Shown here piece by piece: positions 27,491-29,123 of a stretch of 64,000 bases of DNA. Origin of the DNA: Pseudomonadota bacterium (GTDB taxonomy: Bacteria > Pseudomonadota > Alphaproteobacteria > RF32 > CAG-239); assembly GCA_018362935.1 (NCBI GenBank), contig JAHALQ010000007.1:512-64511 (forward strand), read 5' to 3'. Positions within the stretch are counted from its first letter, which is position 1. Each line of letters opens with the position of its first letter. The translations under genes were made by a program, and so were the position numbers. The notes under the pieces are model-generated. The model had not been told where the DNA came from and made no database searches. It saw nothing but the letters and a program-made list of their open reading frames with translations.

Positions 27491-27666
27491 TTTTCCGACA
27501 GATTGCTTAATTCTTCCATATAGCGGCAACGCCCGAAAGGCAAACCACCCGGTCTTTGGTCAGTTTTCTGTTTGATGCTTTTTGCAGAGCCGGCAGCAAT
27601 TCCTCGGGAGCGTCATGCTGTATTTCAGGCCGTTCCATGTCCGTGAACATTTTCGTAATAAGGTAG

Positions 27667-27939
27667 TCAGTCGTCGAAGCGGTCAAACAGCATTTTAAGC
27701 TCTTCAATTTTTTTGTCTTTGTCCGCATCGGTAAAAGACTGAGCAACGCAGTGCTGCAAATGCTTTTTGAGAATATTGGATTCGACGGCTTTGACAGCGG
27801 AGCGGACAGCGCGCAGCTGGGTGATGATGTCGGGGCAATAGCGTCCGTCTTCAATCATCTTCTTCACGCCTTCAATCTGGCCGCTGATACGGTTGAGCCG
27901 CGGCATATTTTCCATATGGCAGGGGGCGTTGTCGGTCAT
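27667..27939 (-). CDS. csoR: CsoR/RcnR-family metal-sensing repressor (CsoR-type C-H-C ligand pattern)
   Basis: RLNRISGQIEGVKKMIEDGRYCPDIITQLRAVRSAVKAVESNILKKHLQHC. Cys in YC plus H-x3-C gives the Cu(I)-CsoR fingerprint. The start is at MTDN (ATG 27939). Confidence 0.8.
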   Translation of the reverse strand: MTDNAPCHMENMPRLNRISGQIEGVKKMIEDGRYCPDIITQLRAVRSAVKAVESNILKKHLQHCVAQSFTDADKDKKIEELKMLFDRFDD

Positions 27940-27952
27940 AAGGGTATCCGCC

Positions 27953-28066
27953 TTACTTGCTGCCGGAACATTTGTCGCCGCAATGGCAGTTGGTGCCGTC
28001 ACATTGGCAGTTGTCTCCGCACTGGCAGTCTTCACAAGTGCATTTGGGATTGTTGCATTTAGACAT
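27953..28066 (-). CDS. 37-aa cysteine-rich metallothionein-like peptide (not in ORF track)
   Basis: Hand translation gives MSKCNNPKCTCEDCQCGDNCQCDGTNCHCGDKCSGSK, with 10 Cys. AAAGGAG lies 7 nt upstream of the ATG, and csoR starts 13 nt after the stop. Confidence 0.7.
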   Translation of the reverse strand: MSKCNNPKCTCEDCQCGDNCQCDGTNCHCGDKCSGSK

Positions 28067-28110
28067 TGTAAACTCCTTTTAATTTGATTATACCTCGCAT
28101 CTGTATTCTA

Positions 28111-28139
28111 TTAATATACCACATGGGGGTATGTGTCAA
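28111..28139 (-). promoter_or_regulatory. sigma70 promoter with embedded CsoR-type operator
   Basis: The minus strand reads TTGACA-catacccccatgtggta-TATTAA. The 17-nt spacer holds the dyad ATACC-N7-GGTAT within ATATACCACATGGGGGTAT. Confidence 0.65.
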
Positions 28140-28277: not shown

Positions 28278-29123
28278 ATGTCAACACAAAAATTGATTCA
28301 CGTTCCGTACGTGAAAACCCAAGCAGAAGAGGTTTCTCTTCTTGAGACCGGCAGTTTTTCTGCCCAAAGGCAATATATCCTCTGGTATGGTTTCCAATCC
28401 CGGCAGGGACAGATTATGTTCGCAGACAGCGGTTTTAGCGAGCTTATCCGCATGCAAAATCTTTTTTACGGTCAGTGGTGGTTTTCCGAGGCAAGACAGA
28501 TACTTTGCCGGCGCGGATTGCTTTCGCCGTTGTCTGAGGAAGACGAGCAACAGCAGAGACGCGCATTTAAAAACTGGCTGTACAACTGTCTGCATGCGCC
28601 CCGCGGCAACGAAGCCGCTTATGGCAGGATGCAGTTCTACGGTATGGCTGGCGATGTGATGTTCCCCCCCGCTGTCAGCGAAGAAGAACAGCTGCGGTGG
28701 CTGGATGAGAAAAACATCGAGAAGATATCTTCTTATACCGGCCGCTGGAAAGGAAAAGCCGCCGTTAGGTTTCTGCAAGAAGCGCCGGAAGAATCCGTAT
28801 TTTTTCAGCTCCACTACCGGTTGCTTAAAAGGCCGGAAGAGCAATACGCTCTGGCGCAGCGCGACATCAGCAACGGGGAAAACAATCTGATTTGGTTTTA
28901 TTTTTCCAGTTACAGAGCGTTTCCCGAGGTTCAGGCTCTGCTTCGCGATTATGATGCGAACCTGTGGCGCCGGATGGTTATGGTTAATTACGGCTGGGAT
29001 TTTGAATTTGAGCGCAAATTCGGCAGCCTTAAAGCTTGGCAGGAAAAATTGTCAGAAAATTATTCGATGCTGGCGCATTGCCCGATTGAGGATATCCGGC
29101 AGTTGCTGCACGGCATAGAGTAA
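28278..29123 (+). CDS. hypothetical Trp-rich protein
   Basis: 281-aa ORF followed by a strong terminator. No family was recognised. Confidence 0.5.
   Translation: MSTQKLIHVPYVKTQAEEVSLLETGSFSAQRQYILWYGFQSRQGQIMFADSGFSELIRMQNLFYGQWWFSEARQILCRRGLLSPLSEEDEQQQRRAFKNWLYNCLHAPRGNEAAYGRMQFYGMAGDVMFPPAVSEEEQLRWLDEKNIEKISSYTGRWKGKAAVRFLQEAPEESVFFQLHYRLLKRPEEQYALAQRDISNGENNLIWFYFSSYRAFPEVQALLRDYDANLWRRMVMVNYGWDFEFERKFGSLKAWQEKLSENYSMLAHCPIEDIRQLLHGIE

Follow-up and report, generated by a model that had tools for sequence, protein, structure and literature searches.

The 64,000 nucleotides of contig JAHALQ010000007.1 analysed here (Pseudomonadota bacterium; Alphaproteobacteria, RF32, CAG-239), hereafter called the window, harbour on the minus strand a compact two-gene locus, in which a gene for a 37-residue, cysteine-rich, metallothionein-like peptide directly precedes a gene for a 90-residue repressor of the CsoR/RcnR family. 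Upstream of the pair lies a promoter overlapped by two predicted operators, O1 and O2. In the direction of transcription, the features of the locus are as follows:

28134..28139, minus strand, -35 hexamer TTGACA, read from the sequence.
28116..28132, minus strand, operator O1 (predicted), ATACCCCCATGTGGTAT, an exact ATACC-N7-GGTAT dyad that fills the -35/-10 spacer.
28111..28116, minus strand, -10 hexamer TATTAA, 17 nt after the -35 hexamer, read from the sequence.
28090..28106, minus strand, operator O2 (predicted), ATACAGATGCGAGGTAT, with one mismatch, 26 bp downstream of O1.
28073..28079, minus strand, Shine-Dalgarno sequence AAAGGAG of the peptide gene, 6 nt between the end of GGAG and the ATG.
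27953..28066, minus strand, metallothionein-like peptide gene, 37 residues, with orthologues in 36 genome loci and 80 metagenome loci.
27667..27939, minus strand, csoR, 90-residue CsoR/RcnR-family repressor (PF02583), its ATG 13 nt after the TAA of the peptide gene.
27667..28035, minus strand, spurious open reading frame (ORF) of 122 residues, the csoR frame stretched 32 codons upstream to a GTG and crossing the peptide gene out of frame.

The ORF running from the ATG at 28066 to the TAA at 27953 gives the product MSKCNNPKCTCEDCQCGDNCQCDGTNCHCGDKCSGSK. It contains 10 Cys (27%) in CxC/CxxC arrangement and 1 His, has neither aromatic (Phe, Tyr, Trp) nor aliphatic residues, and is small (3.9 kDa) and hydrophilic (grand average of hydropathy, GRAVY, -1.0). 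Since an in-frame TAA lies five codons 5' of the ATG, position 28066 is the sole possible start, and AAGGAG-like sequences are found at a matching distance before the peptide start in relatives. The initial annotation had described this peptide with its Cys spacing, its lack of a hydrophobic core and its Shine-Dalgarno sequence, and all of these were reproduced from the minus strand. It had also argued that the gene was missed by annotation and is overlapped out of frame by the 122-residue ORF. The overlap is upheld, and the peptide gene is indeed largely absent from annotation tracks; the 122-residue ORF is ruled out as a true gene, being merely the csoR frame prolonged in the 5' direction, and the CsoR N-termini of relatives begin near a conserved P-x-H-x-E-N-[MI]-P-R-L-N-R segment. 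A gene finder called the identical 37-residue product on a Logan contig whose neighbouring genes are the same.

One genome per species was scanned with the repressor as query, which yielded 80 loci, mostly from uncultured gut Alphaproteobacteria carrying the NCBI label Azospirillum sp. or Azospirillaceae. The remainder belong to a few Gastranaerophilales and to more distant Micavibrio and Rickettsiales-like organisms. Linkage was counted over the 53 gut-clade loci with the closest sensors, and a same-strand Cys-rich ORF was found upstream of csoR in 46 of them, distributed as follows:

40 of 53 loci, a free Cys-rich ORF of 37-145 residues.
6 of 53 loci, a Cys-rich N-terminus fused to a SnoaL domain.
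7 of 53 loci, no Cys-rich ORF found, two of these with too little upstream sequence to judge.

The N-terminal core of the peptide, M-x-K-C-x-N-P-x-C-x-C-x-x-C-x-C-G-x-x-C-x-C, spans 22 residues that align without gaps in 37 sequences, with invariant or nearly invariant Cys columns. Over the 22 shared codons, the ratio of non-synonymous to synonymous differences (pN/pS) is 0.12, pS being near saturation, as against 2.2 in the +1 frame, while the +2 frame is full of stops. Between the window gene and its three closest relatives, 12 of 15, 10 of 15 and 7 of 8 changed codons are synonymous. By the conservation of this core upstream of csoR and the low in-frame pN/pS, the peptide ORF is a protein-coding gene under purifying selection. 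The initial annotation had suggested a homology search for conserved Cys spacing and for linkage to csoR, and both are conserved.

In order to avoid csoR-biased sampling, metagenomes were scanned with the peptide family as query, which gave another 80 loci. A csoR gene lies within 1.5 kb in 38 of the 69 that have room downstream; counted by distinct peptide, about 19 are csoR-linked and 9 unlinked. The operator is present at every csoR-linked peptide gene that has upstream sequence on its contig, and among the loci without a separate downstream csoR ORF it occurs only in L100, in which the peptide and CsoR form a single ORF (loci are numbered with L and proteins with P throughout). Such fusions were found on two independent contigs, P0036 (109 residues) and L100 (a 125-residue ORF from position 2001 of a 34.9-kb contig), which is strong evidence of a functional link. 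In both, the Cys-rich peptide is joined in frame to the CsoR N-terminus, and they may represent natural sensor-sponge fusions or the loss of a stop codon. The pair with both operators is also found in Gastranaerophilales, which belong to another phylum. Judging from gene order, then, the peptide is linked to csoR and its predicted operators across two phyla, and the peptide class may have come to be common to gut Alphaproteobacteria and Gastranaerophilales by horizontal transfer. Given that only 13 nt separate the peptide gene from csoR, with no promoter or terminator in between, and that natural fusions exist, we infer that the two genes are co-transcribed.

A very short ORF located only 13 nt before csoR might instead be a regulatory leader or upstream ORF without any metal-binding function, and its richness in Cys, typical of the precursors of some modified peptides, could equally point to a precursor of a modified or secreted peptide. 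The conservation of residues other than Cys (N-P, G-D-N) speaks against both, as does the variation in length of the family (37 to 145 residues), which proceeds by whole CxCGxx modules. The leader or upstream ORF was rejected on these grounds and on the existence of stand-alone copies and of SnoaL and CsoR domain fusions; moreover, no attenuator structure or terminator is present between the peptide gene and csoR. The modified-peptide precursor and the secreted, defensin-like peptide were rejected as well, there being no signal peptide and no consistently adjoining maturase, radical-SAM peptide enzyme or transporter. An ORF devoid of metal-binding function thus seems scarcely credible.

Neither Pfam nor NCBIfam has a model that matches the 37-residue peptide. 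When 5.8 billion clustered proteins were searched with a profile led by a 55-residue family member, 59 relatives were recovered, for which the only name is "hypothetical protein" and among which no Pfam domain is recognisable save the CsoR domain of P0036; an exhaustive HMMER search of 1.84 billion representatives gave 29 at E <=1e-3. When the family profile was compared with all PDB sequences, only two chains were retrieved, and both are metallothioneins: the Littorina cadmium metallothionein 6qk5 (E 0.014) and the sea-urchin metallothionein MTA 1qjl (E 1.4). Meanwhile Metallothio_5, the Drosophila family, was matched below threshold by 17 of 32 members (best score 14.6 bits against a cut-off of 25, E 0.02-0.035), and the sole further Pfam matches were two single-member ones to other metallothionein families; none of the eukaryotic families (Metallothio_5, Metallothi_Euk2, Metallothio) reached its threshold. 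The prokaryotic family PF02069 (Metallothio_Pro, SmtA/BmtA) matched neither the window peptide nor any of the 32 members at E up to 10, and SmtA was not found by the family-profile search of PDB. Profile alignment with hhalign gave 77% probability against Drosophila MtnA and 1.3%, over 5 columns, against MymT.

A rubredoxin or zinc-ribbon domain is ruled out, as the peptide has no hydrophobic core. The AlphaFold model has a mean predicted local distance difference test score (pLDDT) of 69, a predicted template modelling score (pTM) of 0.32 and no regular secondary structure, and a Foldseek search of PDB with it found nothing, an outcome that agrees with a metal-dependent fold and is otherwise uninformative. 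What the peptide does display are the features by which metallothioneins are operationally recognised, namely low mass, very high Cys content, CxC/CxxC motifs and no aromatic residues, its metal binding being a prediction. By the profile comparisons, the family belongs neither to SmtA/BmtA nor to MymT nor to any described family, and the peptide seems to stand for a so far undescribed family of metallothionein-like metal sponges in bacteria, as the initial annotation had thought possible. The latter had also held that the peptide resembles short fungal copper metallothioneins more than MymT or SmtA/BmtA. The unlikeness to MymT and SmtA/BmtA was borne out; the fungal affinity was not, since the weak matches are to Drosophila family 5, a mollusc and a sea urchin and are not specifically fungal. 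The likeness to animal metallothioneins is probably a convergence of low-complexity Cys patterns.

The product of the downstream gene matches Pfam PF02583 (Trns_repr_metal) with 99 bits against a cut-off of 22.8 (E 2e-28), and its best NCBIfam match is RicR, under the cut-off of that model. The best relative of solved structure is 4m1p, the CsoR of Geobacillus with bound Cu(I) (E 8e-18), followed by InrS and the CsoR of Streptomyces lividans. Residues Cys35, His60 and Cys64 align with the ligands of 4m1p and of S. lividans CsoR (4adz) and form the x-Cys-His-Cys pattern (Cys, then His-x3-Cys) of Cu(I)-sensing CsoR. The allosteric network of Mycobacterium tuberculosis CsoR includes a second-shell Tyr before the first Cys and a Glu about 20 residues after the His. 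In the window repressor, Tyr34-Cys35 aligns with the Tyr-Cys of 4m1p and Glu80 with its Glu, whereas InrS has Pro-Cys at the former position. The Ni/Co sensors RcnR and InrS use an N-terminal His, and RcnR a further His at the fourth ligand position. The pattern of RcnR, DmeR and InrS is absent here, the fourth ligand being Cys64 and the residue 11 positions before the RLNR arginine being Asp3, not His; His8 is conserved throughout the clade, CopA-linked sensors included. The RLNR motif of helix 1 (residues 14-17) is of the RLxR form described for CsoRs (PMC3902906). The gene is therefore predicted to encode a CsoR-family repressor with a residue pattern of the Cu(I) type, in agreement with the initial annotation, which had placed such a repressor, with the Cys...His-x3-Cys signature, 13 nt downstream of the peptide gene.

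The -35 and -10 hexamers with the dyad in their spacer, also proposed initially, are present as described, although TATTAA is not listed by the promoter scan, which demands a T at position 6 of the hexamer. The exact ATACC-N7-GGTAT dyad occurs once in 64 kb, compared with 0.02 copies expected by chance (2 in 100 shuffles). O1 and O2 are the sole matches in the window at <=1 mismatch, and O2 overlaps a second promoter-like pair, TTAATA-16-TATAAT (28114..28087). Judged by number only, two matches against 0.92 expected are not significant. A chance dyad is nevertheless ruled out because the exact site is so rarely expected, because both sites lie in one promoter and because such sites are enriched about 700-fold upstream of peptide genes across loci. 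There, 61 matches (<=1 mismatch) fall within 4.4 kb of sequence upstream of peptide genes, most of them at two preferred distances from the ATG, as against 4 in the other 209 kb. Each of the 37 aligned loci has a site no more than 120 nt before the peptide ATG, typically about 64-70 nt away, and 22 of them have a second one, about 37-42 nt from the start codon and about 26-30 bp past the first. Nearly all of these loci show the same arrangement, in which TTGACA or a near variant is followed after 1-2 bases by ATACC-N7-GGTAT running into the -10 hexamer. The arms of the operator are invariant and its centre variable, which is typical of a phylogenetic footprint.

The CsoR operators of S. lividans have been characterised experimentally and follow the consensus ATATACCCCTNAGGGGTATAT with essential TAC-N9-GTA arms (PMC3902906). 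Both O1 and O2 fit this form, each being a TAC-N9-GTA pseudopalindrome with a C/G tract that overlaps the promoter. The resemblance to known CsoR operators that had been noted from the window thus extends to all 37 loci, and the dyad is a predicted, conserved operator of the published CsoR type.

Copper is considered the probable inducer, given the Cu(I) residue pattern of the sensor and the occurrence of sensors of the same clade beside CopA and multicopper oxidase genes. In the same genome scan, more distant sensors (47-65% identical) with the same operator immediately upstream head copper-gene operons (L059-L073). These contain a CopA-type ATPase (CPCALGLATP; TIGR01511, 603 bits, above cut-off), a copper-resistance multicopper oxidase (TIGR01480, 655 bits) and periplasmic CopZ-like proteins.

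Taken together, the data are best read as a two-gene, autoregulated and Cu(I)-responsive metal-stress operon, with the metallothionein-like peptide as sponge and CsoR as sensor, a reading deduced from sequence and genomic context to which we would assign a probability of roughly 0.7. The metal binding of the peptide, copper as inducer and the stoichiometry are what we infer within it. Without metal, CsoR tetramers would sit on O1, in the -35/-10 spacer, and on O2, 26 bp downstream, and block RNA polymerase. A rise in cytosolic Cu(I) would be sensed through its binding by Cys35, His60 and Cys64 at the subunit interface, and the second-shell residues Tyr34 and Glu80 would relay the change so that the repressor leaves the DNA. 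Once the operon is transcribed, the peptide would fold around the metal into a 10-Cys metal-thiolate cluster, whose capacity, by analogy with other metallothioneins, may be about 6-8 Cu(I) or 3-4 divalent ions. It would thus buffer metal in the cytosol without export, and as csoR lies on the same transcript, repression would return when free metal falls. The sensor and thiolate-sponge unit paralleling RicR-MymT that the initial annotation had envisaged is therefore supported as the best reading, with analogous logic.

Several observations weigh against this reading. None of the reading frames of the 64-kb window contains a DKTGT or GMxCxxC motif, and hence there is neither a P-type ATPase nor a CopZ-like gene in it; the lack of a CopA or CopZ partner had been noticed from the outset, and neither copper pump nor chaperone is there to accompany the pair. 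About one third of the distinct family members are stand-alone and have no CsoR operator. No terminator was detected by the scan immediately 3' of csoR. The other points concern the metal. Six relatives have peptide-CDF-csoR operons (L010, L036, L038, L044, L048, L049) and three have CDF-csoR pairs (L031, L046, L051), which makes about nine CDF-linked relatives in all. The CDF exporter, which possesses HxxxD/HxxxD sites and an N-terminus rich in His, comes nearest to the zinc transporter ZitB (168 bits, compared with 87 for DmeF). In L021, a P1B-2 ATPase of the Cd/Zn type (TIGR01512 above, TIGR01511 below cut-off) lies about 1 kb upstream of the peptide gene, and L012 and L018 carry the C-terminal fragment of a homologous ATPase at the matching position. 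InrS, a CsoR-family protein with a Cys/His site, binds Zn(II) and copper tightly in vitro and can respond to Zn(II) there (PMC4235346).

Since the same sensor and operator seem to control a ZitB-like CDF in several relatives, the architecture could be the same and yet answer to zinc, cadmium or thiophilic metals generally, with the CsoR-type protein acting as a sensor of divalent soft metals and the peptide as a Zn/Cd-thionein. The window peptide is in fact most similar (about 76%) to peptides of CDF-linked operons, and His is common in the peptide family, as it is in the zinc-binding SmtA. Against this, no natural zinc-sensing member of the CsoR family is known to us. The window sensor has the x-C-H-C ligands with Tyr and Glu of Cu(I) sensors and no His at the N-terminal position of RcnR and InrS, and in non-gut relatives the same operator and sensor clade accompany CopA-type ATPases and multicopper oxidases. 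Seven of the eight CDF-linked sensors, moreover, differ from it beside the Cys ligand (C-T/S-D compared with C-P-D/E), and two have lost the Tyr. One must bear in mind that metal selectivity in cells is relative and that a single substitution makes FrmR a Zn/Co sensor (PMC4235346, PMC4528141). The combination of an RcnR-like regulator with a CDF protein is also a known arrangement, DmeRF (PMC6044271). Some relatives of the window locus resemble the Co/Ni system DmeR-DmeF in that a CsoR/RcnR-family repressor is probably co-transcribed with a CDF exporter; they differ from it in the fourth ligand of the sensor, which is Cys rather than His, and in a CDF protein nearer to ZitB, and the window itself has no CDF gene. 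A signal of zinc, cadmium or soft metals at large in place of copper is accordingly regarded as unlikely. As it also seems to govern ZitB-like CDF exporters, the sensor as such may be a natural soft-metal generalist (Cu, Zn, Cd) or a CsoR-family sensor of Zn/Cd, and this too we hold to be rather doubtful. If true, zinc or cadmium detoxification would have its first natural regulator from the CsoR family, and this in organisms that depend on sequestration rather than on CopA/CopZ efflux.

The pair might, on the other hand, sense and buffer a thiol-reactive stress other than metal (persulfides, electrophiles or oxidants) in the manner of CstR or FrmR, in which case the peptide would be a sacrificial thiol sink. 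Persulfide and formaldehyde sensors do occur in the CsoR family, and FrmR is among the PDB matches of the repressor, but His60 is retained, whereas the chain of 7mq1, which we take to be a CstR-type protein, has Asn at this position. Another family member, TTHA1953, has control over sulfur oxidation (PMC10318464). In nine relatives, csoR is followed by an MBL-fold hydrolase gene, yet what its product matches is a generic metal-dependent hydrolase and no persulfide dioxygenase. The ties of the operator and of the sensor clade discussed here are to copper genes, and a thiol-stress function is held to be very improbable.

The copper-responsive sensor-sponge operon can be compared with several known systems. 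RicR of M. tuberculosis represses the metallothionein gene mymT (PMC3944814), and there, as here on sequence grounds, a CsoR-family copper repressor acting through a palindromic promoter motif controls a small (about 4-5 kDa), Cys-rich cytosolic peptide. The repressor regulates itself there and is predicted to do so here, and in both cases the peptide gene was at first left unannotated (PMC3944814, PMC7558416). The two peptides, however, share no sequence similarity; the window pair would form a single bicistronic operon, while mymT and ricR lie apart from each other; and the window family, modular and of 37-145 residues, is found in gut Alphaproteobacteria and Gastranaerophilales. The SmtA/BmtA-SmtB system shares with the window a metallothionein gene adjoining the gene of its own metal-sensing repressor and a peptide that contains His, but in SmtA the fold is zinc-finger-like and includes aromatic residues, and SmtB is a member of the ArsR/SmtB family and not of CsoR. 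With the CsoR-copZA systems of Bacillus subtilis, Geobacillus and S. lividans, the locus has in common the sensor fold, the C-H-C ligands, the Tyr/Glu second shell, the RLxR helix 1 and a TAC-N9-GTA operator with a C/G tract overlapping the promoter; the window sensor differs in controlling a predicted thiolate sponge instead of an efflux ATPase and chaperone. Finally, the eukaryotic CxCGxxCxC metallothioneins (Drosophila MtnA, Littorina 6qk5, sea-urchin 1qjl) are alike in size, Cys content and the spacing of the CxC-G-xx-CxC module, although all matches to them are sub-threshold and the N-terminal C-x-N-P-x-C motif is specific to the bacterial family.

A number of variants were encountered among the relatives. 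The most extreme modular expansion is seen in L011, where a 145-residue protein (2532-2969) with about 22 tandem CKCGE[GD] hexapeptides and 46 Cys occupies the peptide slot between two operators (2463, 2490) and csoR (3004). In L013-L016, L019 and L025, a metallothionein-like N-terminus of about 35 residues with 11-12 Cys is joined to a SnoaL-like domain (PF07366); the resulting 173-residue protein (in L019, for example, at 934-1455) is preceded by two operators and followed by csoR and an MBL-fold hydrolase gene. A peptide variant beginning with MGKCNNPNCQCEDCQCGDNCQCGKDC (L084-L086, L128-L153) is very common in the human gut, being present in 139 index blocks of the assembly collection. It is a stand-alone gene with neither CsoR operator nor adjoining csoR, and in the three loci with listed neighbours (L084-L086) a resolvase gene is present about 2.3 kb away. 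The long proteins P0060, P0061, P0062 and P0076 have up to 11 tandem CGNPSCKCPTCECGTGCTCGVS..VVCDPCK modules; in the first three, though not in the short P0076, these lead into a segment RYxRQ...VLVVGAGGLG that resembles the beginning of MoeB/ThiF/UBA4 enzymes. All four look eukaryotic and have the C-x-N-P-x-C-x-C-x-x-C-x-C-G core in common with the bacterial family.

As for neighbouring genes, a 47-residue ORF without Pfam match (27507-27650, minus strand) lies directly 3' of csoR in the window. It shares 45% identity (E 8e-13) with the C-terminal third of a 125-residue ORF located after csoR in L001 (3402-3779) and may be a truncated remnant or a small third gene. Divergent from the operon, on the plus strand, 28278-29123 encodes a 281-residue protein, also without Pfam match, whose homologues adjoin the peptide-csoR pair in L012 and L018 as well as in L004; in L012 and L018, they stand between the Cd/Zn-type ATPase fragment and the peptide gene. 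A 785-residue, FeoA-FeoB-like ferrous iron transporter gene, identified by eye, follows csoR directly on the same strand in seven loci (L008, L009, L012, L018, L021, L026, L029). Operons predicted to be under CsoR control repeatedly include small membrane proteins whose first helix bears a vicinal Cys pair (HFVCCGVPAL/LICCALPAL) reminiscent of MerT/MerF, namely in L034 and L035 (about 2597-2950) and, upstream of csoR, in L060, L066, L076, L078 and L080; they were matched by no Pfam or NCBIfam model.

The logic of a sensor coupled to a sponge is already known from RicR-MymT and SmtB-SmtA, and the sensor and operator are those of the CsoR family; it is the peptide family that is undescribed. Only SmtA/BmtA and MymT are named as bacterial metallothioneins in reviews of 2020 and 2025, so the peptide family would add a third one, unrelated to them in sequence, which is widespread in human and animal gut metagenomes and almost wholly unannotated. 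Its growth by hexapeptide CxCGxx units, from 37 to 145 residues, is typical of animal metallothioneins. The locus offers a compact, testable module of sensor, operator and effector, and its relatives, in which the peptide stands alone, is accompanied by a CDF exporter, or is fused to SnoaL or to the sensor, form a natural series of variants for the study of metal specificity. It also carries a warning for annotation, as metal-homeostasis genes that fall under ORF size cut-offs are systematically missed. For the gut microbiota, the family may serve as a marker of exposure to copper or zinc, for instance through feed supplementation.

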